Source: Holophagales bacterium (lineage in GTDB: Bacteria > Acidobacteriota > Thermoanaerobaculia > UBA5066). From it: DNA of 64,000 nt. Below the pieces are notes generated by a model, which saw only the letters and a program-made list of their open reading frames with translations, did not search any database and was not told the DNA's origin. Below, piece by piece: positions 22,579 through 59,782 of the stretch (position 1 is its first letter; the number at the start of each line of letters is the position of its first letter). A program made the position numbers and the translations under genes. The stretch spans positions 37,659 through 101,658 of the forward strand of contig JADKBZ010000016.1 of NCBI GenBank assembly GCA_016714815.1, in the 5' to 3' direction.

Positions 22579-22579
<1 letters not shown>

Positions 22580-36437: not shown

Positions 36438-37139
36438 ATGGCGCTCCCCCGTTTTCAGAAGCTCTCCGCCGAACGACGGCACGGTCTGATCGCCGCCGCT
36501 GCGGAGGAGTTTGCCGAGAAGGGCTACGACGGTGCCGCGCTCGTGGCGATCGCCGAGAGGTCCGGGATCGGGAAGGCCTCGGTCTACTACTACTTCGCTG
36601 ACAAGGCCGACCTCTGCTCGACCGTCCTCGACGAGGCGTGGAAGCTCCTCCGGCTCGAGGGTCGCGTGAACCTGAAGACCCTGACCGCCGAGACCTTCTG
36701 GTCGTCCGTCCAGGCGGCAGCCCGGGAGAACCTCACCCGCTGCAACCAGGAGCCCTGGCTCCTCGCGGCCTCGAAGATCCTGAACAGGGCTGCAGCCGAC
36801 CCGAACGGCGGAGGAGTCCTCGGCGAGTTCGCGGCGAAGCGCCGCGCCTGGGAGGAGGCGTACGTCCGCCGGGGGCAGGAGCTCGGGGCCGTCCGCAAGG
36901 ATCTTCCGGCGGAGCTGCTCGTGACGGTATCCCTCGCCGCCAGGCAGGCCGCGAACCTCTGGATCCTCGAGCACCTCGAGAAGAACGGGGAGAGAACGCA
37001 GTCACACCTGGCCGGACACGTTTTCGAGATCTACCGGGCCGTCCTGTCGCCGCCGCCGGACTGGGGCGGGCCTCCCGTGGTCCCGGCGTTTACGGTCGTC
37101 CCTGGATCCGCCGACCGCCCCGGCTCGCGCTCCGCGTAG
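36438..37139 (+). CDS. TetR/AcrR family transcriptional regulator
   Basis: EEFAEKGYDGA...IAERSGIGKASVYYYFADKADL HTH; divergent from the decarboxylase. Confidence 0.92.
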   Translation: MALPRFQKLSAERRHGLIAAAAEEFAEKGYDGAALVAIAERSGIGKASVYYYFADKADLCSTVLDEAWKLLRLEGRVNLKTLTAETFWSSVQAAARENLTRCNQEPWLLAASKILNRAAADPNGGGVLGEFAAKRRAWEEAYVRRGQELGAVRKDLPAELLVTVSLAARQAANLWILEHLEKNGERTQSHLAGHVFEIYRAVLSPPPDWGGPPVVPAFTVVPGSADRPGSRSA

Positions 37140-37239
37140 CGCTTCCTTCCCTTCGCCAGGAGTTCCCCCGCACACGTTCGCGGGGGAGCTGCCGAACCGG
37201 GACAGGCGAGGGGCCCCGAACGGAAACTCACGGCTACCC

Positions 37240-37268
37240 TTGACATCGCAATTTCTTCGACCCATCAT
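37240..37268 (+). promoter_or_regulatory. putative sigma70 promoter of the TonB receptor operon
   Basis: TTGACA-17 nt-CATCAT; GAGGAGG Shine-Dalgarno before ATG 37317. Confidence 0.55.
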
Positions 37269-37316
37269 TCCGACCGACGAGTCGAAAACAGTTCGGTTCG
37301 CCGAGGAGGGCTGGCC

Positions 37317-39680
37317 ATGAGGAGCGTTGGCGTTGCGCGTGGGTTGGTGATTCTCCTGGCACTCGGTCTGGTTCCGCAGGCCGCGGACGCGCAGGGGGTC
37401 GCGTCTCTCTCGGGCGTCGTCCGTGACACGAGCGGGGGCGCGCTGCCCGGGGCGAGCGTGCAGATGGAAACGGTCAAGGGCGGCGGCCGGCGCTTCACCC
37501 AGGCCAACGCGCAGGGCCACTACGCCTTTGCGAACGTGGCTCCCGGCTCCTACCGCGTGACCGCCACCCTCAGCTCCTTCACCCCTGGCAAGGCCGAGCT
37601 GACGCTCGCGGCCGGCCAGTCCGCCACGAAGGACTTCAGCCTCGACTTCTCCTACTTCGCCAACGTCACTGTCACGCCGCAGAAACGCGAGGAGCAGATT
37701 CTCGACGTTCCGGCGGCGATCTCCGCGGTCGGCGGAGAAGCCATTCAAGATCAGGGCGTCACCGACCTCAACCAGATCGCCGCGACCATCCCGGGCATGT
37801 CCATGGTGGAAAGCCAGGCAGGCTCGACCCGCGTTCAGATAAGGGGCATATCGTCTCCCCAGAACCTGCCGACGACAGGTCTCTACCTGGATGAAACGTC
37901 GATCGCCGGCGACTCTGCGGGGAGCGCTCTCGCCGTCCAGATGATCGACCTCGACCGCGTCGAGGTCCTGCGCGGGCCGCAGGGAACCCTGTACGGGGCC
38001 GGGTCGATGGGGGGCACGATCAAGTACATGACGAAGGACCCGAAGCTCGACGCCCTGGGGCTCGAGTTCGACAGCGCGGCCGGCGCGGTCACGGACGGCG
38101 CCGCGACCGGTCGCGCTTCCCTGGTCGTGAACCTCCCCCTCATCAAGGACCAACTCGCGGTCCGGCTCGTCGGCGGCTACGAGCGCAACGCCTCGTGGGT
38201 GAACTACCCGCTCGCGAACGGGGAGGACGTCAACGGCGGCGACACGAAGACGCTCCGCATCAAGACCCTCTGGACCCCGAGCGAGAAGTTCTCCGCGTCG
38301 CTCCTCCTCATGGGGCAGAACGGGGACTACAAGGGACCGAACTTTGCCGACAAGGACCGCACCGCACCGTACATCATCGAGCAGCCGTACGAGGGCCGGT
38401 CGAAGATCGGGAACCTGATCCTCAACTTCGACGCCGGCGCGTTCACGATCCTGAGCTCGACGGGCTACGGCCACGATACCGGCAAGTCGACGAACGACTT
38501 CACGTCGATCTTCGGACCGATCTACGACCTCTTCGGGTTCCCTCCGGGCACGGTCAAGAGCGTCAACTACTGGACCGACGGAGACGCCAAGCAGTGGAAC
38601 CAGGAACTCCGCTTCGCCTCGAAGGGCCTCGGCCCGTTCACCTGGACCGCTGGCCTCTACTACCGCCACGCCACGACCGACAGCATCCAGGGAACGATCT
38701 CGACACCCAATCCCCTGCCGGGAATGGAGATCCTCGATTTCCAGCAGAACCAGAAATCCGAGCAGATGGCCCTGTTCGGCGAGGCCAGCTACGCCTTCTC
38801 GCCGAAGTTCGCGGCGACACTCGGCCTTCGGGAATTCCGCGACAAGCGTGAGCAGTCCGGCTACCAGGTGAGCTTCGGCACGCCGCTGCCCCCCGAAAGC
38901 CACGAAGAGACCTTCACGTCCTTCAATCCCCGGGTCGTTCTCTCCTGGCGTCCGGCCGACGGAAAGCTCTTTTACGCCAGCGCGGCCAAGGGATTCCGGA
39001 GCGGCGGGTTCAACAACCTCCCCGCGGGCTGCACGCTCCCCGAGGCCTACGACCCCGAGACGCTCTGGACCTACGAGGTCGGCTCCAGCGTCAGCGTGGA
39101 CCAGGGCCGCTTCGTGGCGCAGGGGGCGATCTTCCACAACGAGTGGTCGGACATCCAGACGCTGACGACGTGCCCGGGCCTCCCCCTCGTCCAGACCGCG
39201 AACGTGGGCAAGGCCAGCGGCACGGGCGTCGACCTGCAGCTCACGATCGCGGCGAGCCGGGCGCTCAGGTTCACGGTGTCGGGGAACTACAACGACTCGA
39301 AGTACGACTCCACCTCCGTCGCTCACAACGAAGGGGACCAGATCGACTACGTCTCCAAGTACACGCTCGGCCTGGCGGCGGACTGGAGCTTCCGCTGGTC
39401 GCCGGAGATGCCCGGGATGTTCCACGTCGACTACCAGAGCGTCGGCTCCTACGCAATCAACCTCCGCAACTACGGGATCCCTCCGCTCGAGTCGGACGTC
39501 ATCGGCGGCCTGAACGCACGCCTCTCCCTGTCCATCGGCCAGGTGGAGTTCTCGGTGTACGGCCATAACCTGCTCGACCAGAACGACGCCGTGCAGCCGG
39601 CGATCCCGCTCGGCGGGGTGCCGTCGCCGGTCAGCCAGCAGCCGCGCACGATCGGCGCGGGGTTCGGCTTCAAGCTGTAG
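37317..39680 (+). CDS. TonB-dependent receptor with N-terminal CarboxypepD_reg-like domain
   Basis: Signal peptide, GVVRDTSGGALPGASV, RVEVLRGPQGTLYGAGSMGG, KGFRSGGFN, C-terminal QPRTIGAGFGFKL. Confidence 0.95.
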   Translation: MRSVGVARGLVILLALGLVPQAADAQGVASLSGVVRDTSGGALPGASVQMETVKGGGRRFTQANAQGHYAFANVAPGSYRVTATLSSFTPGKAELTLAAGQSATKDFSLDFSYFANVTVTPQKREEQILDVPAAISAVGGEAIQDQGVTDLNQIAATIPGMSMVESQAGSTRVQIRGISSPQNLPTTGLYLDETSIAGDSAGSALAVQMIDLDRVEVLRGPQGTLYGAGSMGGTIKYMTKDPKLDALGLEFDSAAGAVTDGAATGRASLVVNLPLIKDQLAVRLVGGYERNASWVNYPLANGEDVNGGDTKTLRIKTLWTPSEKFSASLLLMGQNGDYKGPNFADKDRTAPYIIEQPYEGRSKIGNLILNFDAGAFTILSSTGYGHDTGKSTNDFTSIFGPIYDLFGFPPGTVKSVNYWTDGDAKQWNQELRFASKGLGPFTWTAGLYYRHATTDSIQGTISTPNPLPGMEILDFQQNQKSEQMALFGEASYAFSPKFAATLGLREFRDKREQSGYQVSFGTPLPPESHEETFTSFNPRVVLSWRPADGKLFYASAAKGFRSGGFNNLPAGCTLPEAYDPETLWTYEVGSSVSVDQGRFVAQGAIFHNEWSDIQTLTTCPGLPLVQTANVGKASGTGVDLQLTIAASRALRFTVSGNYNDSKYDSTSVAHNEGDQIDYVSKYTLGLAADWSFRWSPEMPGMFHVDYQSVGSYAINLRNYGIPPLESDVIGGLNARLSLSIGQVEFSVYGHNLLDQNDAVQPAIPLGGVPSPVSQQPRTIGAGFGFKL

Positions 39681-39696
39681 TCGCTCGCCCACCCGA

Positions 39697-39729
39697 GACC
39701 ACCGCCGCCCGAGGCGGGCGGCGGTGGTC
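39697..39729. terminator. 14-bp GC stem-loop after the TonB receptor (no U-tract; terminator or mRNA-stabilising element)
   Basis: gaccaccgccgccc-gaggc-gggcggcggtggtc. Confidence 0.6.
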
Positions 39730-39788
39730 GAAGATGCGGCCCGCACCGTGCGGATCGAACCTCCGGGATCGGAGGGAAGGGCGCTGCC

Positions 39789-41024
39789 ATGGGAAACCCC
39801 GTCCTGTCATTCCTCAGCCGCGACTGGGCCGGACTGCCGGTCGCCGCCGTCGTGGCGCTGCTCGGAGGATGGTGTCTGCGCGTCGGCCGGGCCAGCGGCG
39901 GGACGGGGGCGGCGGCCGTCGGCACCGCGCTGCTGGTCGTCGCGGGGCTCCTGGCGCTCGGGTCCGTCTGGCATCTCGTTCACGTGGCGCGGACGCGCGC
40001 CCTGCATCCGCCGCCCGGCCGGCTCGTCGACGTGGGCGGCTACCGGATGCACGTCGTCGCCGAGGGAGAGAGCGGGGGGAAGCCCTCGGTCGTCTGGATG
40101 GCCGGGGGGCACGTGGGCGGCTTCGCCATCCACCACCTTCATCGGATGCTGAGGGAAGAGACGCGCTCGATCCTCGTCGATCGTCCCGGAACCGGCTGGA
40201 GCGATATCGGTCCATTTCCGCGCTCGACGGTGCGGGAAGCGGAAGAGATCTTCGCCGCCCTCGACGCTGCCGGGGAGAAGGGGCCATTCGTCCTCGTCGG
40301 CCACTCCTTCGGCGGCCTCCTCGTCGCGAACATGGCGCGGCGCCACCCGGAGCGGCTGGCCGGCCTCGTCCTCCTCGACCCGACGCCTCCCGACACGATC
40401 ATCTACGGACCGCCCCTTCCGGGCCTCTTCCAGATGCGGTACGGAGCGGTCCTGAACGCGCTGCCGCGCCTCTTCGGATTCCACACCGACTTTGCCGGGA
40501 GGCGCATGAGGAAGACGGCACCGCCCGTCTTCAAGAAGGTGCTCGACCTCGTCGAGGAGCGCCTCGGCGAGGCCGGCCGGGCGCTCCGGGCGATCGACTG
40601 CGGAACGAAGGGCGCCTGCACGAGCGCGTCGATCTACTCGGAGCTGACTCCCGCCGGCCTCGCACGGGTCGGATGGGACACGACGCCTTACGACGGAGAC
40701 CTCGGCGACCTGCCGGTCATCCTCGTGAACCCGGCCGACATGGCGGAGCAGGAGCTCGACTACGTCGTGAAGACGGTCGAGCGGCAGACCGGACGGCCGG
40801 TCGACGTGAACCGGCTGCGGCGCTTTTACAAGGGCTCGATGGGGAGGTACCTCTCGTGCTCGAGCCGGGCGGAGCGGGCCTACGCCCCGGCCGGGACGGG
40901 GCACAACTTCCCATATGTCGAGCCCGAGCTCATCGCCGGGGTCGTCCGGAGGCTTCTGACGCCCGGTGTTCCGGTAGCCGCCGCTCCTGCGAATCCCGGA
41001 AGGGCCGAAGGGACCGCCTCGTGA
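39789..41024 (+). CDS. membrane-anchored alpha/beta hydrolase
   Basis: 2 N-terminal TM, PPPGRLVDVGG, DRPGTGWSD, GHSFGG, GTGHNF. Confidence 0.88.
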   Translation: MGNPVLSFLSRDWAGLPVAAVVALLGGWCLRVGRASGGTGAAAVGTALLVVAGLLALGSVWHLVHVARTRALHPPPGRLVDVGGYRMHVVAEGESGGKPSVVWMAGGHVGGFAIHHLHRMLREETRSILVDRPGTGWSDIGPFPRSTVREAEEIFAALDAAGEKGPFVLVGHSFGGLLVANMARRHPERLAGLVLLDPTPPDTIIYGPPLPGLFQMRYGAVLNALPRLFGFHTDFAGRRMRKTAPPVFKKVLDLVEERLGEAGRALRAIDCGTKGACTSASIYSELTPAGLARVGWDTTPYDGDLGDLPVILVNPADMAEQELDYVVKTVERQTGRPVDVNRLRRFYKGSMGRYLSCSSRAERAYAPAGTGHNFPYVEPELIAGVVRRLLTPGVPVAAAPANPGRAEGTAS

Positions 41025-42754
41025 GCGCCGCGCCGCCCTCCGCGGTCCTCGCGGACCTCGCGGCGCGCCACTGGGAGTTCCTCTGCCACGAGCTCCCGCT
41101 GACGGCCGTGCTCGCCGGCGAGTCGACCCCCGACTCCGTCCTCTTCCGCGAGTCGCCCGCCGATCACGAGCGCCGGTATCGCACGGCGAGAGTCCTCCTC
41201 GCCGAGGTCGAGGCGATTCCCGCCGACGGGCTCGAAGCAGAGGACCGGGCCACTCACGCTCTCCTCCGTCACGAGCTCGGGAGCCTCCGCGCTCTTCACG
41301 AGGTCGCCGAGCACCTGAGGCCCTCTCTTTTCCCGAACAGTCCCGCGCTCATGGCGGCCCACTTCGCGAACACCGCGAGCATCGACGACGCGGCGTCGGC
41401 CGAGCGCTACGTCGACCGTCTCGCGACGCTTCCGGCGTACCTCCGCGACCTCAAGGAACGTCTCGAAGAAGGGCGCGAGCGGGGGTTCCGGTACCCGCGT
41501 CGCGTCCTCGACCTGGTGGCCGGGAGCACCCGCGGAATCGCCTCCGGGCCGGTCGAGGCCCAGCCCTGGTTGAAGCCCTTCCAGCGCTCCGCCGCGGCAG
41601 GACGCGAGATGGTCCGGAACGCCGCCTCTCGCGCGGAGGCTCTCGCCCGCAACGAGCTGCTCCCCGCCTTCGAGGAGTTCGCCGCGTTCGTCGAGGGACC
41701 CCTCGCCGAAGGCGCTCGCGAGACCGTCACCTGTACCGATGCCCCGCTCGGCCGGGAGCTCTACCGCGCCCTGCTGAAGGACCAGACCACCCTCGATCTC
41801 GGGCCGGAGGAGATCCACGAGCTGGGGCTCTCCGAGAGGAAGCGCCTCGAGGGCGAGATCGAAGCCGTCGCCGCGGAGGCGGGCTTCCCCGGAGACGTTG
41901 CCGGCTATCGCCGGTTCCTCGCGGGGGCGGAGTTCCTCGTTCCCTCGAAGGAAGCGCTCCGGGAGAGGGCGCAGGTCCTCTGCAAGCGGATCGACGCCCG
42001 CATACCCGCCTTCTTCGGGCTCATTCCGAGAATGACCTATGGCGTGGAGACGATCCCGGAAGCGGCCGCCGAGCGCCTCCCCCCGGCCTACGCGCAGGCC
42101 AACCCCGCCGACCGGACCGGGCCGGGGATCTTCCAGATCACGAGCCTTCCCGCGAGACTCCCGACCTGGTTCCTCCCGGCGCTGACGCTGCACGAGGCCT
42201 GGCCCGGGCACCTCATGCACCTGGCGCTCCTGCAGGAAGCGGAGCACCTTCCTGCCTTCCGGCGCCACGGCGCGCTCCGCTATCTCGTCTGCCTCGAAGG
42301 GTGGGCTCTCTACTGCGAGGGCCTCGGCGAGGAGATGGGGATCTACGAGACGCCGCACGAACGCTACGGCCGGCTGGAAGGGGAGACGTGGAGGGCGCTG
42401 CGGCTCGTCGTCGACACGGGAATTCACTGGTACGGCTGGAGCCGCGAACGCGCCGTCGAGGAGATGGCGCGCCACCTGGCCCTTCCGCTTCCGACGATCG
42501 AGGCCGAGGTGGACCGATACATCGCGTGGCCGGGTCAGGCGCTCGTCTACCAGCTGGGGAACCTGAAGTTCCGCGAGCTCCGGCGCCGGGCCGAGGGGAG
42601 GCTCGGAGAGAGGTTCCGGATTCGGGCCTTCCACGACGCGCTGATGGCGGCGGGAGCCGTGACCCTGCCGGTCCTCGACGATCTCGTCGAGGAGTGGCTG
42701 CGCCGCGAGGACGGTCCGACCGCGGAGGATGGGAGCACCGATGGTCTTCGATAG
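41021..42754 (+). CDS. DUF885 family protein (putative metallopeptidase), no signal peptide
   Basis: HEAWPGHLMH, EGWALYCE, EVDRYIAWPGQALVY, FHDALM; GTGA overlap. Confidence 0.9.
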   Translation: MSAAPPSAVLADLAARHWEFLCHELPLTAVLAGESTPDSVLFRESPADHERRYRTARVLLAEVEAIPADGLEAEDRATHALLRHELGSLRALHEVAEHLRPSLFPNSPALMAAHFANTASIDDAASAERYVDRLATLPAYLRDLKERLEEGRERGFRYPRRVLDLVAGSTRGIASGPVEAQPWLKPFQRSAAAGREMVRNAASRAEALARNELLPAFEEFAAFVEGPLAEGARETVTCTDAPLGRELYRALLKDQTTLDLGPEEIHELGLSERKRLEGEIEAVAAEAGFPGDVAGYRRFLAGAEFLVPSKEALRERAQVLCKRIDARIPAFFGLIPRMTYGVETIPEAAAERLPPAYAQANPADRTGPGIFQITSLPARLPTWFLPALTLHEAWPGHLMHLALLQEAEHLPAFRRHGALRYLVCLEGWALYCEGLGEEMGIYETPHERYGRLEGETWRALRLVVDTGIHWYGWSRERAVEEMARHLALPLPTIEAEVDRYIAWPGQALVYQLGNLKFRELRRRAEGRLGERFRIRAFHDALMAAGAVTLPVLDDLVEEWLRREDGPTAEDGSTDGLR

Positions 42755-43514
42755 CGCCTGCATTCCCTCGAGCCACATTCACTTCGAGGTGCACGGAGAA
42801 GGCGTCCCCCTCTTCCTCGGTTTTCCCCTCATGGCCTCGCAGGGCGAGATCTTCGGCGAGGAGGGCGCCGCGGTCCTGCGCGGTTACCTCGACCGGCTGA
42901 CGGACCGCTACCGCGTCCTCGTCGCCGACTATCCGAGCATCGGCAGGAGCGGCTCGATCCCGACCGCCGAGCTCACCGCCGACCGCGTCTCTACGGACCT
43001 CCTTCGCGTGGCCGACGCCGCCGGGTTCGACCGCTTCGCCTTCTGGGGCTTCTCCTGGGGAGGAGCCGCGGGGCTGCAGCTCGCGTCGCGAACGGATCGG
43101 CTGACGGCGCTCGTCTGCGGGGGCTGGCCTCCGCTCGGCGGTCCGTACGCGGAGATCCTCCGGGCGAGCCGCGAGGCGGCGGCAGATCCGCCGGCCTCGG
43201 CGACGGTGGTCCTGCGCGAGCCGGCGCAGTACGCGCAGTGGGTCACCTTCTACGAGAGCGTCCTGAACTGGCCCGAGGCGGAAGCCGTTGCCCGAATCGC
43301 CTGCCCGCGGATGGCGTACGCCGGCTCGGAGGGCGACCCCACGGCAGGGCACGAAGTCCCGATCTCGATCGCCTCGACGATCCGCGACCGACGCGGAGAG
43401 CTCGAGGCGATGGGCTGGCGCGTGACGGAGATCCCCGGCCGCGACCACTCCGTCTGCCTCGATCCGGCGACGGTCGTGCCCCTCGTCCGGGATTTCCTCG
43501 ACGCGGTCTCGTGA
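42741..43514 (+). CDS. alpha/beta hydrolase
   Basis: DYPSIGRS, GFSWGG nucleophile elbow, GRDH. Confidence 0.85.
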   Translation: MVFDSACIPSSHIHFEVHGEGVPLFLGFPLMASQGEIFGEEGAAVLRGYLDRLTDRYRVLVADYPSIGRSGSIPTAELTADRVSTDLLRVADAAGFDRFAFWGFSWGGAAGLQLASRTDRLTALVCGGWPPLGGPYAEILRASREAAADPPASATVVLREPAQYAQWVTFYESVLNWPEAEAVARIACPRMAYAGSEGDPTAGHEVPISIASTIRDRRGELEAMGWRVTEIPGRDHSVCLDPATVVPLVRDFLDAVS

Positions 43515-43541
43515 AACGGCGATGACGTGAAGGAGCCGGCC

Positions 43542-49402: not shown

Positions 49403-49403
49403 C

Positions 49404-50738: not shown

Positions 50739-50797
50739 AGGCTCTTTTAGGTGAATCGCGTCGCATCGATGACTGTGCCTGGCGGGAGGAAGGCCTC

Positions 50798-51997
50798 GTG
50801 ACACGGGTCTTCTCGTCCGACTATCGCGATCACGGGACCAGGTTCCCGGACCCCTTCCCGGTCCATCGGCTGAAGCGGGTCGATCGCCCGACCACCTGGA
50901 TCAACGAAGAAGAGATCCGGAGGGTCGACGAGCGGGACGGCGGATTCCACCGGGCCGGCCGCGGGGAATACGGCGGGCACATCCAGAAGGAGTACCACCG
51001 CTTTCAGGAGAAGTTCCCGCTCTCGGAAGCGCTCTTCGAGGTCACGCACCGGCTCGGCGAGCCCGACGCGGTCTCCGGCGCTCCGAGGCGAGGCCCGGCC
51101 CCGGGGACGGACGACCCGGCGGCGATGGCGAGGCACATCAAGGAGACCGGCTACTTCCTCCGGGCCGACATGATCGGGATCTGCAGGCTGCCGCCCTACG
51201 CGGTTTTCACCCATGGCCGCAAGGACGATCAGCCGATCGAGCTGACTCACGACTACGCGATCGCCATCCTGGTGGACCAGGACTACAAGACCTCGGCAGC
51301 GTTCAACGGGCGCGACTGGATCAGCAACTCGATGAGCCTGGTCGCCTATTCCCACTCGGCGTTCATCGCCTGCTCCCTGGCGGAGTACATCCGCTCGCTG
51401 GGATACGAAGCGCGGGCCCACCACGCGACGAACTACCAGGTCGTGCTCCCGCCGATCCTGCTCTGGGCGGGGCTGGGAGAGATGAGCCGGATGGGCGACG
51501 TCGTCCTGAACCCGTTCCTCGGCCCTCGCTTCAAGGCGGCGGTGGTGACGACCAGCCTGCCGCTGGAAGTCGACAAGCCGATCGACTTCGGGCTTCAGGA
51601 CTTCTGCGACAAGTGCGGGAAATGCGCCCGGGAGTGCCCGGTCCAGGCCATCTCCCACGGCGGCAAGGTCCGGGAGAAGGGATACGAGCGCTGGCCGGTG
51701 AACGTGGAGAAGTGCACGTCCATGCGGGTCGGGAATCGCCTCGGGTCGGGATGCGGAACCTGCATCAAAGTTTGCCCCTGGAACAAGCCCTTCACGCCGT
51801 TCCACCGGATGGTGAGCTGGAGCCTGAGGAACCTGCCCCCGACCCGCCGTCCCGCCATCTGGGCCGACGACCTGTTCGGGTACGGACGGCCGGACCCGAG
51901 ACGGAAGTGGTGGCTGGACCTCGAAGTGGTGGATGGAGAGTGGCGGATCCCGCGATGTGGGCCCTCGTCACAGCTCCCGGTCCGGGAGGAGCCCTGA
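50798..51997 (+). CDS. rdhA: cobalamin/2x[4Fe-4S] reductive dehalogenase, catabolic (non-respiratory) type
   Basis: ARHIKETGYFLRADMIGIC, DWIS, AGLGEMSRMG, NPFLGPRFK, TTSLPLEVDKPIDFGLQDFCDKCGKCARECP, CGTCIKVCPWNK; no Tat signal, no rdhB. Confidence 0.85.
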   Translation: MTRVFSSDYRDHGTRFPDPFPVHRLKRVDRPTTWINEEEIRRVDERDGGFHRAGRGEYGGHIQKEYHRFQEKFPLSEALFEVTHRLGEPDAVSGAPRRGPAPGTDDPAAMARHIKETGYFLRADMIGICRLPPYAVFTHGRKDDQPIELTHDYAIAILVDQDYKTSAAFNGRDWISNSMSLVAYSHSAFIACSLAEYIRSLGYEARAHHATNYQVVLPPILLWAGLGEMSRMGDVVLNPFLGPRFKAAVVTTSLPLEVDKPIDFGLQDFCDKCGKCARECPVQAISHGGKVREKGYERWPVNVEKCTSMRVGNRLGSGCGTCIKVCPWNKPFTPFHRMVSWSLRNLPPTRRPAIWADDLFGYGRPDPRRKWWLDLEVVDGEWRIPRCGPSSQLPVREEP

Positions 51998-51998
51998 C

Positions 51999-54065
51999 AT
52001 GACGCAACCGAGCACGACCGAAGTGGAAGCCCTCCTCGCGCCCTGGCCCGGTCCCTACGGCGGCCTGCCGCCCTTCGACGTGGCGACACCCGCCGCGATC
52101 GAGCGTGCGTTCGGGATCGCGCTCGAGAGGAAGCGCGCCGAACTGCGCGCCATCGGCGACAACCCGGCGCCGCCGACGTTCGAGAACACGGTGGAGGCGC
52201 TCGAGGACTCCGGACGGGAGCTCCGGCGCGTCTCCGTCGTCTACCAGGTCTTCGCGTCGACGATGGGGACGCCTCAGATGCGCGAGGTCGAAAAGAACGT
52301 CGCGCCTCTCCTCCCCGTCCTCGAGGACGAGATCGCGCACGACGACGCCCTCTTTGCGCGCATCGAGGCGGTCTGGCAGGGGAGGGAGGCCGCGGGCCTC
52401 ACGAGGGAGCAGGAGCGGCTGACGGAGCTCGTGCGCGACCGTCTGAAGCGGCGCGGGGCCGGGCTCCCGCCGGAGGCGAAGAAGCGCCTCGGGGAGATCA
52501 ACGCCCGCGTCGCCTCGCTCCAGGCGCGCTTCAACCAGAACCTCGTGACCGACCAGGACGGCCAGGCCGTCTTCATCGAGGACGAGAGCGGTCTCGACGG
52601 CCTCGGCGAGGAGCAGCGCCTCGCCGCCGCGCAGGCGGCGACCGAGCGCGGCCGGCCCGGGACCTGGGCGATCCCGAACAGGCGCCCCGCGGTCTGGCCC
52701 TTCCTGACGCAGTCCACCCGGCGCGACCTCCGCGAGAAGGTCTGGCGGATGTGGACGATGCGCGGAGACAACCCCGGCGAGAGCGACAACAAGCCGGTCA
52801 TCGCCGAGATCCTGAAGCTGCGCGGCGAAAAGGCTCGGCTTCTCGGCTTCCCCAGCTTCGCGCACTTCGCCACGGCCAACCGGATGGCCCGGACGCCGGA
52901 GGCGGCGCTCGAGCTGATGACGAAGACCTGGCAGAGCGTGATCGGGCCGACGCGCGCCCTCGTGGCGGACCTCCAGGCGATCGCCGACGCCGAGGGGGCC
53001 GGCATCCGCCTCGCGCCCTGGGACCGGCTCTTCTACTCGGCGAGGCTCCGCAAGTCCCGCTTCGACCTCGACGCCGACGCCGTGCGGCAGCACCTCGAGC
53101 TGGAATCGGTCCTGGCGGCGATCTTCTGGGCGGCGGGCCGCGTCCACGGCCTCGCGTTCCGCCAGCTCCCCGACGCACCGGTCTGCCACCCGTCGATCCG
53201 CGTCTTCGAGCTGAGCCGGGGCGGCGAGCCGGTCGGTCTCCTCTGGCTCGACGTCCTCGGCCGGCCGGGAAAGATGCACGGCTCGTGGCAGGCCGAGTAC
53301 CGCGCGGCGGAGTCGTTCCGGGGGCGGGTGCTGCCGATCTCCTCGGTGAACTCCGGCCTCCCGGCACCGCGGGACGGCGAGCCGGTCCTCCTCCCGTGGG
53401 AGTACGCGAACGTCCTCTTCCACGAGTTCGGTCACGCCCTCCACATGCTCCTCTCCGAGGCGCGCTACCCCTCCCTCGGGAGTGTCGCCGTGCCGTGGGA
53501 CTTCGTGGAACTCCCCTCGTTCCTCAACGAGCGGTGGCTCCTCGACCACGAGCTCCTCGCCCGCTTCGCGCGGCTGCACGGGACCGGCGCGCCGATCTCC
53601 GAGGAACTCGTGACGAGCATCGAGCGCGCGCTCCGCTTCGACCGCGTCCTGACGCTGAACCTCGACTTCCTCGGCGGGGCGATCGTCGACATGCGGATGC
53701 ACCTCCTGGCCGACGGCCGCGACGTCGACGCGGTCCGGCTCGAAGAAGAGACCCTCGCGGAGCTGGGGATGCCGGAGGCCTGGGACCTCATCATGAGGGT
53801 CCCGCACTGCTGGCACTCCATCTCCGACGGCTACGCGGCGGGCCTCTACTCCTACCTCTGGTCCGACGTCATGACGGCCGACGTCGCCGAGGCGTTCCTC
53901 TCCTCGCCCGGAGGTCTCTACGACGTGGAGACCGGCGAGCGGTGGCGACGGACGATCCTGAGCGTCGGGACGAGCGTCCCTGCCGAGGAGGCGTTCCGGG
54001 ACTTCATGGGGCGCGACCCCGACCCATCGGCCCTGCTGCGCCGATTCGGGCTGGAGGCCCGATGA
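51999..54065 (+). CDS. M3 family metallopeptidase (Dcp-like), copy A
   Basis: [41 protein letters not shown]. Confidence 0.93.
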
Positions 54066-54151
54066 CAATGCCGACCCGCAAGACCCTCCCGCGATCCCTC
54101 GATTCCCTTCACCGCGACTTCCACCGCACCGACCCGGGGAGCGCCCCATGA
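54062..54151 (+). CDS. 29-aa mini-ORF ([29 protein letters not shown])
   Basis: ATGA overlaps with both the upstream M3 stop and the downstream IYD start. Confidence 0.45.
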
Positions 54152-54873
54152 GCCAGCCGCCGGAATCCGATCCCTGCGTCCTCGAGCCCCTTCCCGACTA
54201 CCGCGAATATCCGGCGGAGGAGATGCGCGAGCGCGCCCGATGGTTCTACCGGGACGTCGCGCGACGTCGCACGGTGCGCGAGTTCGACCGGCGCCCGGTC
54301 CCCCGGGAGGTGATCGAGCAGTGCCTTCTCGCGGCGGGCACCGCGCCCTCGGGCGCGAACCAGCAGCCGTGGCACTTCGCCGTCGTCACCGATCCCGTTC
54401 GCAAGAAGAAGATCCGCGAAGCGGCCGAGGAGGAGGAGCGGGAGTTCTACGCCGGCCGGGCGCCGCAGGAGTGGCGGGACGCGCTGGCGCCCCTCGGGAC
54501 GGACGAGAACAAGCCCTTCCTGGAGGACGCCCCCGTCCTCATCGCGATCTTCGCGCAGGCTCACGGCGTCCGGCCGGACGGGGAGCGGCTCAAGCACTAC
54601 TACGTGCACGAGTCGGTCGGGATCGCGACGGGCTTCCTCCTCGTCGCCCTCCACCACGCCGGTCTCGCGACGCTGACCCACACGCCGAACCCGATGGGCT
54701 TTCTCAACGAGTGCTGCGGGCGGCCGTCCTCCGAGAAGCCGATGATCCTCCTCGTCGTCGGCTATCCCGCACCGGGCTGCCGGGTCCCCGTGCACGGCGG
54801 GATCAAGAAGCCGCTGGAGGGGATCTCGAGCTGGCTCGGGCCCGAAGGCGGCCGAACGGAGCCGACTCCATGA
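54148..54873 (+). CDS. iyd: iodotyrosine deiodinase (IYD)-like flavoprotein, nitroreductase fold
   Basis: [56 protein letters not shown]. Confidence 0.88.
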
Positions 54874-56982
54874 CGGATCGCAACGGAGACCAGCCAGCGC
54901 CCCGCACCCTCGACCTCTCGCCGGCCGCGGAGGCGCTCCTCGCACCCTGGACCGGGCCCTGCGGGGGCACGCCGCCGTTCGACGTGGCGGAGCCCGCGTC
55001 GATCGAGAGCGCCTACCGGGTCGCCATCGCCCGCAAGCGCGAGGAGGTCGCGGCGATTGCCTCGGACCCGGCGCCGCCCACGTTCGAGAACACGATCGCG
55101 GCGCTCGAGGATGCCGGCCGGGCGCTCCGCCGTGTCGACACCCTCTTCCGGGTCTTCTCGTCGACGCGGAGCTCCGGGGAGATGCGTGAGGTGGAGACGA
55201 GACTCAAGCCGCTCCTTCCCGCTCTCGAGGACGAGATTGCCCACGACGACGCCCTCTTTGCCCGGATCCGTGCAGTCGACCAGTCGGCCGAGCAGGCGGG
55301 GCTCACGCCCGAGGAGATTCGCCTGACCCGCGTCGTCCGCGACCGGCTCTCGCTGCGGGGCGCCGGACTCGAGCCGGGCGCCAGGGCGCGCCTCGCCCAG
55401 ATCAGCGGACGGATCGCCGAGCTCTCCGCCGCCTTCAGCCAGAACCTCCTCGCGGACGAGGAGGGGCAGCAGGTCCCCCTCGACGACGAGGCGGATCTCG
55501 AGGGCCTCGACGAGGAGTTCCGCGGCGTGCTCGCATCCGCCGCCGTGTCGCGCGGGCTCTCCGCGCGCTGGGCCGTCCCCAGCACGCGCGCCCACGTCAT
55601 GCCCGTTCTGATCTCTTCGGCGCGTCGCGAGGTCAGGGAACGGGTCTGGCGCATGTGGGTGCGGCGCGGCGGGAACCCCGGCGCGCACGACAACAGGCCC
55701 GTCGTCGCCGAGATCCTCCGCCTGCGCGCGGGAGAAGGCCCGGCTCCTCGGCTTCCCGACCTACGCCCACCTCGCCACGGCCGACCGGATCGCGGGGACG
55801 CCGGAGAACGCCCTCGCCCTCGTGAAGCGGGTCTGGGACGGCGTCGTCGGCGCCGCTCGCGACCGGCTCGCCTCGATGCAGGCGCTCGCGGACGAGGACG
55901 GCGTCTGCCCGATCGCGCCCTGGGACCGGCGCTTCTACGCGAGCCGGCTGCGCCGGGCACGCCTGGACCTCGATGAAGGAGAGGTGAGCGCCTACCTGCC
56001 GGTTGAGTCGATCCGCGAGGGAGCGTTCCACGCGGCGAGCCGGCTTCACGGACTCGACCTCGCGGAAGTCCACGACGTCCCCGTCTGCCACCCCGACGTC
56101 CGCGTCTTCGCCGTGCGGCGAGGGAAGGAGTCGATCGGCCTCCTCTGGCTCGACCTCTACGCGCGCGACGGCAAGGTCTCGGGCGGCTGGATGGACGAGT
56201 ACCGCGCGGCGGAGTCCTTCCGCGGAAGGGTCCTTCCGCTCGTGTCGATCAACATGAACGTCGCGAGACCGGCGGCGGGAGCGACGGCGCTCCTCTCATG
56301 GTGGGACGCTCTCACCTTCTTCCACGAGCTGGGCCACGCTCTCCACATGCTCTGCTCGAAGGCGCGCACTCCCTCGCTCGGGAGCTTCACGGTCGCCCCC
56401 GACGTTCTCGAGCTGCCGTCGATCCTGAACGAGCGCTGGCTCACGACGCTCGAGGTGCTCGAACGGTTCGCGCGGCACCACCGGACCGGAGAGCCGATGC
56501 CGAAGCGTCTCGTCGAGAGGATCGAGGAAGCCCGGGTCTTCGACCCCTCCGACGGGGCGACCGCGAGTCTCGGCTACCTGGCGACGGCCTTCGTCGACCT
56601 CGCCGTCCACCTCGCGGCCGATGGCGGGGAGGTCGACCCTGTCGCTGTAGAGGAGAGGGCCCTTGCAGACCTCGGCCTCCCGCCAGCTGCCGAGCCGCTC
56701 CATCGCGTCACGCACCTCCGTCACGCCTTCGCCGGCATCTACGAGGACCGCTACGCGGCCGGCTACTACTGTTACCTCCAGGCGGACGTCCTCGCGGCCG
56801 ACGCGGCGGAGGCATTCCTCTCGTCACCGGGAGGGCTCTACGACGCCGCGACGGCCGAGCGGTATCGGCGCACGATCCTCGCCGTCGGTCACGGCGTCCC
56901 CGCGGCGGAGGCCTTCCGGTCGTTCCGGGGCCGCGATCCGGACCCCGAGGCGCTGACGAGACGGTTCGGACGGAAATCCTGA
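54870..56982 (+). pseudogene. M3 family metallopeptidase copy B with +1 frameshift at ~55731 (pseudogene or sequence error)
   Basis: ctgcgcgcg-g-gagaaggcccggctcctcggcttc: removing one G restores [12 protein letters not shown] as in copy A; HELGH and ELPS intact downstream. Confidence 0.85.
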
Positions 56983-57002
56983 CATTCCGAACGGAGTGTG
57001 CG

Positions 57003-58241
57003 ATGAAGCAGATTCTCTTCCGCGGTTTCCACCTTCTCGACCCGGAGCTCGACGAGCCCCGGGCAGGCTGCGAGCTCCTCGTCGAGGGCGACCGGATCCG
57101 CGAGGTCTCCGACCGGCCGATCCAATCGTCCGGGGCCGAGGTCATCGACGGCGACGGCGCTTTCCTGATGCCCGGCCTCATCGACGCCCACGTCCACGTG
57201 ACGCTTTCCGAGGTGGCGCTCCGGCGGCTGGAGGAGGTGCCGCTGACGCTGATGACGGCCCGGGCCGCCGTCCAGATGCGGGCGATGCTCGACCGTGGCT
57301 TCACCACGGTGCGCGACACCGGGGGTGCCGACTGGGGCCTGAGGGCTGCCGTGGAGCAGGGACTCTTCGCCGGGCCGCGCCTCTTCATCGCCGGACGCGC
57401 CATCGGGCCCACGGGCGGCCACAGCGACATTCGCCGCCGGACCGACAGCGGGATCCGCTGTCACTGCTGCGACGCGCTGACGTTCGCCCTCGCCGTGGCC
57501 GATGGCGAGACCGAGGTCCGCAAGGCCGTCCGCGAGGAGCTCCGTCAGGGCTGTGACCAGGTCAAGATCATGATGTCGGGCGGGGTCGCGTCGCCCTTCG
57601 ACCCGATCGACAGCCTCCAGTTTTCCCCCGGCGAGGTCGCCGCCGCGGTCGAGGAGGCCCACGCGTTCGGCCGGTACGTCTGCGCTCACGCCTACACGCC
57701 GGCCGCGATCACGCGCGCGGCCCACGCCGGGGTCCGCACGATCGAGCACGGCAACCTGATCGACGACGCCTCCGCGCTCCTCATGGCAAGCAAGGGAATG
57801 TTCCTCGTCGCGAACCTCGTGACGTACTTCGCGATGCGCGAGCGCGCGGCCGAGCTCGGAATGACCGCGGAGATGCTCGCCAAGAACGAGGTCGTCATCG
57901 AGGGCGCGCTCCGCTCTCTCGAGGTCTGCCGACGCGCCGGCGTGCCGGTCGCCTTCGGCAGCGACCTTCTCGGACAGCTCCAGGAGGAGCAGTCGCGCGA
58001 GTTCACGCTGCGCGCGCAGGTCGTCAGCCCCGTCGAGGCGATCCGCTCGGCGACGACGATCGCCGCGCGCGTCCTCCGGCGCGAAGGCGTCCTCGGGTGT
58101 CTCAGGCCGGGCGCTCTCGCCGACCTGATCGCGGTCGACGGCGACCCGCTGAAGGACCTCTCCCTCCTCGAAGGCCAGGGCCGGCACCTGACCCTGATCA
58201 TGAAGGGCGGCCGGTTCCACCGTCGCCCCGGAGGGCTGTAG
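57003..58241 (+). CDS. metal-dependent amidohydrolase (Xaa-Pro dipeptidase/carboxypeptidase-like)
   Basis: MPGLIDAHVH, GFTTVRD, KIMMSGGV, AHAY, IEHG, GSD, GALADLI. Confidence 0.92.
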   Translation: MKQILFRGFHLLDPELDEPRAGCELLVEGDRIREVSDRPIQSSGAEVIDGDGAFLMPGLIDAHVHVTLSEVALRRLEEVPLTLMTARAAVQMRAMLDRGFTTVRDTGGADWGLRAAVEQGLFAGPRLFIAGRAIGPTGGHSDIRRRTDSGIRCHCCDALTFALAVADGETEVRKAVREELRQGCDQVKIMMSGGVASPFDPIDSLQFSPGEVAAAVEEAHAFGRYVCAHAYTPAAITRAAHAGVRTIEHGNLIDDASALLMASKGMFLVANLVTYFAMRERAAELGMTAEMLAKNEVVIEGALRSLEVCRRAGVPVAFGSDLLGQLQEEQSREFTLRAQVVSPVEAIRSATTIAARVLRREGVLGCLRPGALADLIAVDGDPLKDLSLLEGQGRHLTLIMKGGRFHRRPGGL

Positions 58242-58243
58242 AG

Positions 58244-59782
58244 GTGGGCTCAGACGGACCGAGGGACCCCCGCGAGGTCGTAGACCTCACCTCGAGGGAA
58301 GAGCTCCAGAGCGTCGTGGAGTTCCTCGCTCACGACCTACTCGAAGGTCGCGCGCCGGGAACCCGGGGCGGCCGGCTGAGCGAGCTCTACATGCAGAGCC
58401 TCTTTAAGCTCCTCGGCCTCCGGCCGGGGATCGACGGCGGCTACCTGCAGCCCTTCCGGATGAAGGGGTACACCACACGCCACGTGGCGGTCGGGGTCCC
58501 CGGGCTCGAGCTCAGGAGTCCGGACGACGTGATGGGCGTTCAGGCCCGCGACGAGCCCTCCCTGGACGTGGAAGCCGAGGCCGTCTTCGTCGGCTTCGGG
58601 ATCCGGACGCCCCTCTTCGGCTGGGACGACTTCAAGGGGCACGACGTGAGGGGCAAGGTCCTGATCGTGCGGGCGAACGACCCGGGCCACTGCGACCCGT
58701 CGCTCTTCGAAGGCGCCTCCGTGACCTACTTCGGGAGGTGGAGCTACAAGATCGAGGAAGCGCGGCGGGCGGGAGCCCGGGCGATCCTGATCGTCCACAC
58801 CGACGAGAGTGCCGGGTACGACTGGGGCGTCGTGGAGCGCTCCTGGGGCCGGGAGAACGTCTTCCTGCCGTCGTCCCTCGAGAACGACCTCGAGTTTCAG
58901 GGATGGATCAGGGAGGAGAGCCTCCGCCGGCTCCTGGCGACGAAGGGGCTGAGCCTCGACGACGTCTACCGCGACACGCTGAAGGAGACCTTCGAGCCCG
59001 TCCCTCTCGGGATGTCGATCCGGATCACGGGCGAGAACGAGTTCCGGACGGTCGAAGCGGCGAACGTCGTTGCCGAGATTTCCGGCCGGAGCGAGAGGCG
59101 GATCGTGCTCTCCGCCCACATCGACCACATCGGCCACCAGCCCGACCAGCCGGGCGACAACGTCTTCAACGGAGCCATCGACAACGGCTCCGCCGTGGCC
59201 GCCATGGTCCTTGCGGCGAAGGCGCTGAACGCGTTCCGCGAGGAGCTGCCGTACACGATCACGCTCCTCGCCTGCACGGCCGAGGAGGGAGGGCTCCTCG
59301 GGTCGTACCACTACGTGCGGAACACCGATCGCTCGAGCATCCTGGCGAACGTGAACTTCGAGTCGACGCCGGTCTGGGAGAGGAGCCGGAGCGTGATGGG
59401 CGTCGGGGCTCACTACTCCACGCTGGAAGGCCACCTGAAGGAGATCGCGGCCGAGGAGGGCCTCCTCTATTCGGAGTTCTCGCGGACGGACCAGGGCTTC
59501 TTCTACCGCTCCGACCAGTTCCCGTTCGCCCGGTACGGCATCCCGGCTGTCTGGATCTCGGCCGGCGAGGACTTCGAGAGCGGCCAGGACCACTTCGGGG
59601 AATTCCTCCGGAACACGTACCACACGGTCCGCGACGACTTCGACCCCGGGTGGGAGCTCGAGGCGCTCCGGCAGACCGTCCGGAGCGCCGTGATGCTCGT
59701 CGAACGGATCGGGCGGAGCCCGGAGCCGCCTCGGTGGAAGGCGAGGCTCACGTTCCCGTCGGAGGCCCGGGAGCCGGGCTGA
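58244..59782 (+). CDS. M28 family peptidase with PA domain
   Basis: LAHDLLEGR, TYFGRWSYK, SAHIDH, GAIDN, AEEGGLLGS, RSDQ, YHT. Confidence 0.92.
   Translation: MGSDGPRDPREVVDLTSREELQSVVEFLAHDLLEGRAPGTRGGRLSELYMQSLFKLLGLRPGIDGGYLQPFRMKGYTTRHVAVGVPGLELRSPDDVMGVQARDEPSLDVEAEAVFVGFGIRTPLFGWDDFKGHDVRGKVLIVRANDPGHCDPSLFEGASVTYFGRWSYKIEEARRAGARAILIVHTDESAGYDWGVVERSWGRENVFLPSSLENDLEFQGWIREESLRRLLATKGLSLDDVYRDTLKETFEPVPLGMSIRITGENEFRTVEAANVVAEISGRSERRIVLSAHIDHIGHQPDQPGDNVFNGAIDNGSAVAAMVLAAKALNAFREELPYTITLLACTAEEGGLLGSYHYVRNTDRSSILANVNFESTPVWERSRSVMGVGAHYSTLEGHLKEIAAEEGLLYSEFSRTDQGFFYRSDQFPFARYGIPAVWISAGEDFESGQDHFGEFLRNTYHTVRDDFDPGWELEALRQTVRSAVMLVERIGRSPEPPRWKARLTFPSEAREPG

Follow-up and report, generated by a model that had tools for sequence, protein, structure and literature searches.

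We describe here an operon in a 64,000-nucleotide stretch of the Holophagales bacterium assembly GCA_016714815.1 (contig JADKBZ010000016.1, positions 37,659 to 101,658 of the forward strand), hereafter called the window. Between positions 36438 and 59782 of its + strand, 16 co-directional genes encode a TonB-dependent receptor, two permeases of the major facilitator superfamily (MFS), a set of peptidases and other hydrolases, and two predicted reductive dehalogenases, namely a protein of the RdhA family and a homologue of iodotyrosine deiodinase (IYD). It is a nutrient-utilization operon with an undescribed accessory function. The conserved unit within it is a core of hydrolases, in the order alpha/beta hydrolase (ABH), DUF885 protein, ABH, M19 and M3, which is found in at least three phyla, usually together with a TonB receptor and MFS permeases, and to which the dehalogenases are accessory. 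Our preferred interpretation, to which we assign a probability of roughly 0.5, is that the genes form a TetR-controlled operon for catabolism in a bacterium of the Thermoanaerobaculia (Acidobacteriota) from wastewater, activated sludge and biofilm, and that it would serve the use of peptides with halogenated tyrosine by means of its two dehalogenases. Halotyrosine is the best single reading because the dehalogenases recur with the core and because their conserved residues are those that hold an ortho-halophenol, in the case of IYD in its amino-acid form.

According to this interpretation, oligopeptides or peptide-like natural products would enter through the outer membrane via the TonB receptor and would pass the inner membrane via the two MFS permeases. 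They would then be cut to amino acids by an S9 peptidase, two Dcp-like M3 peptidases, an M19 dipeptidase, an amidohydrolase, an M28 protein, the DUF885 protein and two ABHs, all placed in the cytoplasm for want of a detectable signal peptide. Two cytoplasmic reductive dehalogenases would strip the halogen from the ortho-halogenated phenolic products. The FMN-dependent IYD would take free 3-halotyrosine or 3,5-dihalotyrosine, recognized by the zwitterion of the amino acid, and the B12/Fe-S enzyme of the NpRdhA type would take ortho-halophenols that IYD cannot bind. The likeliest substrates of the latter would be the 2-oxo acid into which the adjacent amino-acid dehydrogenase would turn halotyrosine, or else halogenated hydroxyphenyl acids that did not arise from an amino acid. 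Ordinary tyrosine or hydroxyphenyl acids would result and pass into catabolism. We infer these substrates, the division of labor, the compartments and the TetR/promoter control from the evidence laid out below.

Organization of the Operon

The window has a GC content of about 70%, which fills raw lists of open reading frames (ORFs) with spurious frames; genes were resolved by third-position GC (GC3) and frame analysis together with the ORF calls. Gene families were named with Pfam and NCBIfam, gene starts are predictions, and compartment calls rest on inspection of the N-termini. The order obtained is TetR, TonB receptor, membrane-anchored ABH, DUF885, second ABH, S9, MFS_2, M19, MFS_1, amino-acid dehydrogenase of the Glu/Leu/Phe/Val family (aaDH), RdhA, first M3 (M3a), IYD, second M3 (M3b), amidohydrolase and M28. 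Intergenic gaps range from -26 to +177 nt, and six junctions overlap: those at 41021, 47052, 48113 and 54870 are 4-nt overlaps of start and stop, and longer ones join DUF885 to the second ABH (26 nt) and MFS_1 to aaDH (20 nt). The RdhA gene stops 1 nt before M3a, and the genes of IYD and M3b share 4 nt. A run of genes on one strand with stops and starts overlapping in this way is far beyond chance for gene order.

The initial annotation had listed about 17 co-directional genes with tight junctions. The four short overlaps just named stand, and the other two junctions given, at 54062 and 54148, belong to a deletion scar described below. All the gene families that it named were matched by Pfam and NCBIfam, the TetR gene at the head of the operon being an addition. 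Its assignment of the RdhA-type protein and of IYD proved right by homology and by substrate-binding residues, and its view of the locus as an operon for peptide catabolism, with a TonB receptor as the point of entry, is retained here.

RdhA and the Adjacent Amino-Acid Dehydrogenase

The RdhA gene (50798..51997; all operon genes lie on the + strand) encodes a protein of 399 residues. It scores 193.9 bits against TIGR02486, above the cut-off of 160.35 and therefore within the family, and it matches residues 260-632 of NpRdhA (PDB 4RAS/6ZXU), the catalytic half of that enzyme, with an E-value of 1e-100; the corresponding values are 2.4e-29 for respiratory PceA and 3.5e-07 for QueG. For NpRdhA an E-value of 2.6e-120 was recorded as well. 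Two 4Fe-4S motifs were recognized at residues 268-329 (Fer4_7 and Fer4_16), and the Fe-S cysteines C270, C273, C276, C280, C306, C319, C322 and C326 are invariant in an alignment of 20 diverse family members (alignment A1). Equally invariant, in 20 of 20 family members, are S180, Y184, K246 and R310, the equivalents of NpRdhA S422, Y426, K488 and R552. In NpRdhA, S422, K488 and R552 hydrogen-bond the phenol OH of 3,5-dibromo-4-hydroxybenzoate and Y426 is the proton donor (PMC7565698). Other positions of the pocket are changed with respect to NpRdhA, A419 being replaced by Asn177 (invariant in the short family), F290 by Gly49 and P311 by Gln70, and the ring substituents preferred by the window's RdhA may differ from those of NpRdhA.

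The architecture of about 700 residues seen in NpRdhA was not found here, as the window's RdhA is without the N-terminal half of that protein. This half gave a second, weaker match to the same region of RdhA and repeats part of the catalytic-domain fold. The N-terminus of the window's RdhA is hydrophilic (MTRVFSSDYRDHGTRFPDPFPV), and on inspection the protein shows neither a Tat or Sec signal nor a transmembrane helix. There is also no gene for a small membrane protein (rdhB-like) in the operon gene map. We regard this RdhA as a predicted dehalogenase that is like the catalytic domain of NpRdhA but has a distinct, shorter architecture.

Directly 5' of RdhA lies aaDH (49383..50738; ELFV_dehydrog and ELFV_dehydrog_N), a placement that holds throughout this clade (the window and loci L001, L048/L167 and L161/L162). 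Its best NCBIfam match is the Trp dehydrogenase ScyB, below cut-off, and its best PDB matches are Leu, Trp and Phe dehydrogenases (E-values from 4e-40 to 1e-22), with which the GGxK and KN motifs align. The N-terminal 110-130 residues or so (window 49383-49780) match no Pfam family. The protein measures 444-451 residues in three operon variants (the window, L161/L162 and L167). The dehydrogenase that stands beside IYD in a Blastocatellia genome, described below, has 351 residues and is without the N-terminal stretch of the window's aaDH.

The Iodotyrosine Deiodinase Homologue

The IYD homologue (54148..54873; 241 residues) has the FMN nitroreductase fold (PF00881, E-value 2e-26). Its closest solved relative by E-value (4e-68) is PDB 5KO7, a chain of 228 residues deposited as 'Nitroreductase', which we take to be the IYD of Haliscomenobacter hydrossis (HhIYD). 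Mouse IYD (3GB5/3TNZ) follows with E-values of 5e-50/3e-50, human IYD (4TTB) with 3.5e-47 and TnIYD (6PZ0) with 3e-23, and the best match to a nitroreductase other than IYD reaches only 1e-13. Residues E97, Y101 and K122 align with the Glu-x3-Tyr motif of the mouse and human enzymes and of 5KO7 and with the Lys located 21 residues further on in these sequences. T179, in the sequence LTHTP, aligns without gaps with the Thr at flavin N5 in mouse and human IYD, and by our own counting this position presumably corresponds to human T239. The triad motifs are also present in the IYDs of five other loci discussed below (L087, L090, L098, L100 and L169).

In TnIYD, where the triad is E68, Y72 and K92, these Glu, Tyr and Lys residues sit in the lid and coordinate the zwitterion of the substrate (PMC8668982). 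All characterized IYDs, bacterial ones included, prefer halotyrosine over halophenol by orders of magnitude (PMC8668982). By homology and by these substrate-binding residues, the window's protein belongs to the iodotyrosine deiodinase subgroup, and dehalogenation is its predicted activity. Bacterial relatives of this IYD are numerous, with at least 8000 clusters at E<=1e-20. Identity to the window's protein is 74-95% for the best 120 listed, which include proteins named Gammaproteobacteria and Burkholderiales by their sources. Such high conservation among bacteria suggests strong purifying selection, frequent transfer, or both.

Related Loci in Other Genomes

The small ABH of the core offered a query that is blind to dehalogenases. 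It retrieved 790 relatives at E<=1e-30 from several phyla, and core loci were sampled from five lineages, in all of which the small ABH adjoins DUF885 or the other ABH. Core loci of Holophagales, of Steroidobacteraceae and of one further lineage carry no dehalogenase. Those of Thermoanaerobaculia carry RdhA, and that of a Blastocatellia metagenome-assembled genome (MAG) carries a 66%-identical IYD followed directly by an amino-acid dehydrogenase. A reductive dehalogenase is thus present in two of the five lineages sampled with this marker. In the Blastocatellia locus (L169, JANRKY010000220.1), the IYD with its triad motifs and the ELFV amino-acid dehydrogenase occupy positions 10912-12714 inside an ABH-PhyH-ABH core, whose ABHs are 44% and 60% identical to those of the window. 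As a side observation, this IYD-dehydrogenase pair is a counterpart of the aaDH-RdhA pair seen in Thermoanaerobaculia, IYD taking the part of RdhA.

Metagenomes were scanned with IYD as well, and the best 80 loci were examined (57-93% identity; 35 loci of at least 8 kb). Four of them (L087, L090, L098 and L100) have an IYD that is 73-76% identical to the window's and stands beside orthologues of the core, with a TonB receptor and MFS permeases nearby. Core identities in these four are 58-62% for M3, 56-64% for the small ABH, 49-58% for DUF885, 64-69% for M19 and 50-52% for the large ABH, and none of the four carries RdhA or aaDH. By exact-sequence match, three belong to Rubrivivax-like Betaproteobacteria and one to another member of the Pseudomonadota (52% GC).

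Related loci also carry P450, Rieske or VanA-type oxygenases, PhyH, D-amino-acid-oxidase-type (DAO) and sarcosine-oxidase-like enzymes, and a class IV aminotransferase. Examples beside the core are the sarcosine-oxidase-like, DAO, second nitroreductase, VanA-type and Rieske ring-hydroxylating genes of L098 (10672-16424), L100 (9140-9964) and L166 (12717-13853). These accessory genes hint at substrates with aromatic residues that are N- or O-methylated or otherwise modified.

The alignment scan of species-representative genomes with RdhA gave 592 relatives, and again the best 80 were examined (55 loci of at least 8 kb). They span Desulfobacterota, Acidobacteriota, Aminicenantes, Anaerolineae and Asgard archaea, including Heimdall- and Hodarchaeota MAGs, and form a family of 380-420 residues with 60-72% identity outside the clade of the window's RdhA. 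The closest genomic RdhA (95% identical) is from a Thermoanaerobaculia MAG, and an 81%-identical relative is from Thermoanaerobaculia too. Locus L001 has the same operon as the window, IYD included, with an erythromycin-esterase-like (Ere-like) gene and a beta-lactamase-family gene lying between M3a and IYD. L048/L167 have the order TetR-TonB receptor-ABH-DUF885-ABH-S9-MFS-M19-aaDH-RdhA-M3-M24 followed by further genes, without IYD. A metagenomic lineage with an 86%-identical RdhA has ABH-DUF885-ABH-S9-MFS-M19-MFS-aaDH-RdhA-M3-beta-lactamase family-amidohydrolase-MR/MLE, likewise without IYD. The position of RdhA, after aaDH and before M3, is fixed across RdhA identities of 81-100%. At 74% identity the RdhA is already in an unrelated context, and the setting of peptidases and aaDH is confined to the Thermoanaerobaculia clade with RdhAs at least 81% identical.

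No conserved partner gene of the short RdhA family emerged across phyla, as no neighbor is present in more than 11 of the 80 loci. The most frequent are GntR-FCD regulators (11 loci), sigma-54 activators (10), TRAP transporters DctPQM (8-11) and PaaK-like CoA ligases (7). The TRAP, GntR and PaaK-like neighbors of RdhAs from other phyla fit aromatic or organic-acid substrates. Taken with the core loci, these scans indicate that IYD has joined the core independently in three distant lineages and that RdhA has joined it once.

The Other Genes of the Operon

The first gene (36438..37139) encodes a TetR-family regulator (PF00440 TetR_N, E-value 3e-13). It is followed by the TonB-dependent outer-membrane receptor (37317..39680), which shows Pfam CarboxypepD_reg, Plug and beta-barrel domains, begins with MRSVGVARGLVILLALGLVPQAADAQ and is the sole product with a Sec-type signal peptide. 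The first, larger ABH (39789..41024; matches to Abhydrolase_1/6, Hydrolase_4 and Thioesterase) has hydrophobic N-terminal segments that would anchor it in the membrane, and the remaining products look cytoplasmic. This ABH is a core gene, with orthologues 44-62% identical in the core loci of other phyla.

Two more core genes come next. The DUF885 protein (41021..42754), counted among the peptidase families by the initial annotation, matches PF05960 over its full length (E-value 2e-132), and its orthologues elsewhere are 49-68% identical; a search of solved structures returned only unannotated structural-genomics entries and no functional lead. The small ABH (42729..43514), assigned by Pfam and used above as the marker of the conserved core, had no match among solved structures. 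An S9 prolyl-oligopeptidase-family serine peptidase (43527..45575; Peptidase_S9_N and Peptidase_S9) precedes the first inner-membrane transporter, MFS_2 of the GPH type (45631..47055; PF13347, E-value 4.5e-71). The M19 dipeptidase (47052..48116; PF01244, E-value 5e-75), with orthologues 64-79% identical in related loci, is followed by the second transporter, MFS_1 (48113..49402; PF07690, E-value 2.5e-39).

Both M3 peptidases are Dcp-like. M3a (51999..54065, with an alternative start at 51933) matches PF01432 (E-value 2.5e-84) and, below cut-off, the Dcp model NF007624 (E-value 2e-127). In M3b (54870..56982), the N-terminal part corresponds to positions 17-270 of the Dcp profile and the C-terminal part to positions 311-675. 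The operon ends with an amidohydrolase (57003..58241; PF01979, E-value 1e-45) that is like a Xaa-Pro dipeptidase (NF051886, E-value 4e-78, below cut-off) and a protein of the M28 aminopeptidase family (58244..59782; PF04389, E-value 4e-34, with a weak PA-domain match).

Rearrangements and Sequence Corrections

In the window, M3b is split into two ORFs, 54870-55976 and 55822-56982, by one extra base at 55729, where the window reads GCGCGCGGGAG and relatives read GCGCG-GGGAA. Loci L001 and L081 show the single-base gap, and contigs without the base are present in all four public runs that cover the site, two metatranscriptomes and two metagenomes (X1, X2, X4 and X5); in one of the two metagenome runs such contigs make up only part of the depth. 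M3b is intact in the population because the extra base is missing from these public contigs and from L001 and L081, a finding that rules out a pseudogene. The extra base probably stems from the source of the window, as an error of assembly or consensus or as a rare variant. A separate discrepancy was seen at position 49755, where the window has G and the contigs of all six covering runs (X1-X6) have C.

The ORF of 29 codons between M3a and IYD (54062..54151, + strand) is a deletion scar. It joins the beginning of a beta-lactamase-family/DUF3471 gene, whole in L001, to the end of that gene: window 54063-54101 corresponds to L001 14675-14712, where the gene starts, and window 54109-54299 to L001 16118-16308, its end together with the start of IYD. 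A 16-kb contig in run X1 confirmed this arrangement. Roughly 1.4 kb have been deleted, leaving an in-frame remnant whose ATGA overlaps with M3a and IYD were kept at both ends. A real small gene at this place is ruled out. In L001, an orthologue of the Ere-like gene (L001 13274-14665, + strand; 82% identical by blastp) is part of the operon, where it stands between M3a and the beta-lactamase-family gene. In the window, this gene lies past the end of the operon on the opposite strand (59825..61231), a placement that reflects rearrangement between close relatives.

Control, Occurrence and Expression

The TetR-family protein is probably the repressor of the operon. An orthologue (65% identical) heads the related operon in L167, and TetR genes are found in Holophagales core loci as well. 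A candidate sigma-70-like promoter, TTGACA-17-CATCAT (37240..37268, + strand), lies 48 nt 5' of the start of the receptor gene, in the largest gap of the operon (177 nt, between TetR and the receptor). No other promoter-like match was found on either strand in 36000-55999, a stretch in which chance would give 0.6. Overlapping its -10 hexamer is an imperfect inverted repeat (37247..37295) with 20-nt arms that are 70% complementary, a candidate TetR operator. Directly 3' of the TetR stop, a hairpin (37161..37190, + strand) could form from an 11-bp stem (91% complementary) and an 8-nt loop, with no T-run. These are matches to a consensus and no evidence of function; control of the operon by TetR at this promoter is predicted.

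A locus of about 100% identity was found in four biofilm metatranscriptome runs, and near-identical sequence in metagenomes from wastewater, activated sludge and sediment. Single metatranscriptome contigs cover 42321-58458 and 50198-61193 and span many gene junctions. Together with the tight spacing, the overlaps and the one promoter-like site with its overlapping inverted repeat, these junction-spanning contigs suggest that the operon is co-transcribed. Contig depth is flat by construction and a poor measure, and it is with this caution that we record a depth of about half that of the neighbors over 38103-39800, the 3' two-thirds of the receptor gene, in the RNA runs (in X1, about 8-13 against 18-25).

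Flanks of the Operon

Downstream, the Ere-like gene mentioned above (59825..61231, - strand; PF05139, E-value 3e-43) is convergent with the operon. Upstream, a divergent unit (31562-36356, - strand) comprises a pair of M16 (insulinase-type) peptidases (33043-34719 and 31562-33046) and a group II PLP-dependent decarboxylase (34866-36356) whose gene diverges from TetR, all assigned by Pfam; it carries the theme of peptides and amino acids upstream. A role of this enzyme in making halotyramine, as a tyrosine decarboxylase, was considered and found unsupported, since among solved structures it is closest to 4RIT and to acidic-amino-acid decarboxylases. The rest of the upstream sequence (1-31500) is ordinary chromosome, with cell-envelope genes (MurJ, glycosyltransferases), CorA, two Ser/Thr kinases, two-component systems, malate dehydrogenase, a succinate dehydrogenase/fumarate reductase operon (19052-23373), a beta-lactamase-family gene (27036-28832) and TauE.

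Weighing the Explanations

The case for halotyrosine-containing peptides as the target of this operon has to be set against a number of observations that count against it. Both dehalogenases usually occur elsewhere: 78 of the 80 RdhA loci examined are in unrelated contexts, the two with a peptidase context both being Thermoanaerobaculia, and 74 of the 80 IYD loci are in unrelated contexts, with two from the window's own lineage. RdhA and IYD co-occur in a single species-level lineage, to which the window, L001 and probably L081/L082 belong, and IYD is missing from the operons whose RdhAs are 81-86% identical. As cores without a dehalogenase exist, halogenated substrates cannot be the general target of the core. 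An aaDH is to be expected in any peptide-catabolic operon, and its place next to RdhA does not have to imply that the two enzymes share a substrate. No cobalamin, ferredoxin, flavodoxin or flavin-reductase gene was found in the 64-kb window, which leaves the dehalogenases without an electron donor encoded there. Finally, contigs from the same RNA libraries also bridge the divergent (34942-38492) and the convergent (about 59800) boundaries of the operon, so that carry-over of DNA is possible.

These results also bear on what had been claimed for the locus. The dehalogenases that the initial annotation put forward do not define the locus, as homologous cores of Holophagales, Steroidobacteraceae and another lineage lack them. 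The pairing of the two enzymes does recur in other genomes, in L001 and probably in L081/L082, and each enzyme alone accompanies homologous cores, the pair itself not extending beyond that one lineage. That the initial annotation knew of no described locus pairing IYD and RdhA with peptidases agrees with our full-text literature searches, in which no paper connected IYD with RdhA or with a cluster of peptidase genes. A broader version of our interpretation would make the core a cross-phylum locus dedicated to peptides with modified aromatic residues, in which dehalogenation of the halotyrosine type is a recurrent accessory step. We hold this to be possible and put it forward tentatively.

One alternative concerns the origin of the peptides. 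The target might be modified non-ribosomal peptides rather than fragments of halogenated proteins, for instance the cyanobacterial aeruginosins with their chlorinated hydroxyphenyl-lactate, or other peptides whose residues are chlorinated, N- or O-methylated or D-configured. Hydrolases of the esterase type would then open esters, and the dehalogenases, joined in other lineages by oxygenases, would process the modified aromatic building blocks. IYD would take halotyrosine, and RdhA would take halogenated hydroxyphenyl acids that are without an amino group. The two ABHs of the core would suit such a target, as would the Ere-like, beta-lactamase-family/DUF3471, MR/MLE (dipeptide-epimerase-type) and M24 genes of related loci and, in other lineages, the VanA-type oxygenase, PhyH, DAO, sarcosine-oxidase-like, Rieske, P450 and class IV aminotransferase genes. 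Three of the four Pseudomonadota loci that combine IYD with the core come from Rubrivivax-like Betaproteobacteria, bacteria of the same Burkholderiales group as Paucibacter toxinivorans. The latter breaks down several cyanopeptides without mlr genes (PMC8068134; PMC12116083), and aeruginosins carry a halogenated hydroxyphenyl-lactate (Hpla) at position 1 (PMC12116083), both of which speak for this alternative. However, the argument is purely contextual, with nothing that links a gene of the operon to a cyanopeptide, the organism of the window comes from wastewater, sludge and biofilm samples, and the same enzymes would serve ordinary or chemically chlorinated peptides. We consider this alternative rather unlikely; it is compatible with the halotyrosine interpretation and refines it.

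It is unlikely, in our opinion, that the operon is a general one for scavenging peptides and amino acids, in which the dehalogenases are passengers brought in by gene shuffling and act on free halophenols or other substrates. The operon does turn over fast among close relatives, as seen in the insertions, the deletion scar at 54062-54151 and the moved Ere-like gene; there are cores without dehalogenases, and both enzyme families usually have other neighbors. What counts against shuffling of this kind is that the slot of RdhA between aaDH and M3 was kept at RdhA identities of 81-100%, that IYD joined homologous cores independently in at least three distant lineages, and that IYD and M3b overlap by 4 nt and RdhA and M3a are spaced by 1 nt. 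The specificity of IYD for the amino-acid form of its substrate also fits a context of peptidases.

A different chemistry for the two enzymes appears very unlikely. The IYD-like protein could act on 3-nitrotyrosine or another modified tyrosine, given that the nitroreductase fold reduces nitro groups innately when the active-site lid is open rather than closed (PMC8668982). The RdhA-like protein could catalyze another B12-dependent reduction, as does its distant but detectable relative QueG, and the papers found contain no characterized member of the RdhA family of about 390 residues. Against this, the full NpRdhA set of phenol-binding and proton-donor residues is invariant, the triad and Thr of IYD are kept along with high identity to solved IYDs, and every IYD tested to date dehalogenates halotyrosines (PMC8668982). 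Energy conservation by organohalide respiration, as proposed for the RdhAs in MAGs of Ca. Sulfomarinibacter, a marine member of the Thermoanaerobaculia that was read as using organohalides as electron acceptors (PMC8528874), can be dismissed for the window's RdhA, because the hallmarks of respiratory rdhAB (a Tat-exported RdhA with rdhB or N-terminal transmembrane helices) were not found, its closest solved relative is the cytoplasmic, catabolic NpRdhA instead of PceA, and its gene lies inside a catabolic operon.

Known Systems and Significance

The halotyrosine interpretation invites comparison with systems that are better understood. NpRdhA from Nitratireductor pacificus and BhbA from Comamonas sp. 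7D-2 are catabolic RdhAs for ortho-halophenols, and the window's RdhA is like them in its catalytic domain, its 4Fe-4S motifs, its equivalents of S422, Y426, K488 and R552, and its predicted cytoplasmic location without Tat signal or RdhB. They differ from it in context, which is a pathway for aromatic acids or herbicides in their case and a peptidase operon with aaDH here. BhbA is said to have a fused reductase domain, and the window's RdhA is too short to carry one. The window's protein is instead a member of the short cytoplasmic RdhA family of anaerobes (Desulfobacterota, Aminicenantes, Anaerolineae, Asgard archaea), within which the context of peptidases and aaDH is limited to the Thermoanaerobaculia clade. 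Cytoplasmic RdhAs of unknown substrate have been reported from the genomics of sediment anaerobes (PMC6129605, PMC12219181).

With animal IYD, HhIYD and TnIYD, the window's IYD shares the nitroreductase fold, the triad and the Thr at flavin N5. It has a short N-terminal extension, is not anchored in the membrane and comes close in length to the 228-residue chain of 5KO7. In animals, IYD serves to recover iodide for thyroid hormone or to control bromotyrosine, whereas the gene of the window's IYD is part of a peptide-catabolic operon, where it overlaps an M3 gene, and this context points to a catabolic role. As in nutrient loci with TonB receptors, built on the logic of polysaccharide utilization, and in the mlr cluster for microcystin degradation, an example of a catabolic cluster for a peptide toxin, an importer, a permease, hydrolases and a local regulator are gathered in one co-directional cluster. 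The window differs from the former in having no SusD-like partner and no glycoside hydrolases, from the latter in that no mlrA-like gene was seen, and from both in having peptidases and esterases without a detectable signal peptide and in the presence of reductive dehalogenases.

As far as found in the literature, the hydrolase core is uncharacterized; NpRdhA, BhbA and IYD are each well described. The locus makes two questions testable: why bacteria keep a highly conserved IYD that is specific for halotyrosine, and what the numerous cytoplasmic, non-respiratory RdhAs of environmental anaerobes act on. The bacterial need for IYD was described as 'not easily rationalized', and exposure 'has not yet been studied' (PMC8668982). 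If our interpretation is correct, natural and disinfection-derived halogenation of proteins would be linked to microbial scavenging of carbon and nitrogen and to halide cycling in wastewater, soil, lakes and sediments. A compact NpRdhA-type enzyme of 399 residues, with a matched IYD, would also become available for work on halophenol removal. In the broader version put forward tentatively above, a cobalamin-dependent dehalogenase would take part in ordinary amino-acid catabolism, coupled to aaDH. For the two enzyme families, that version would mean that bacterial IYD would gain a physiological role that has long been missing, and the short cytoplasmic B12-dependent RdhAs would gain a first class of natural substrates, the 2-oxo or hydroxy acids derived from halotyrosine.

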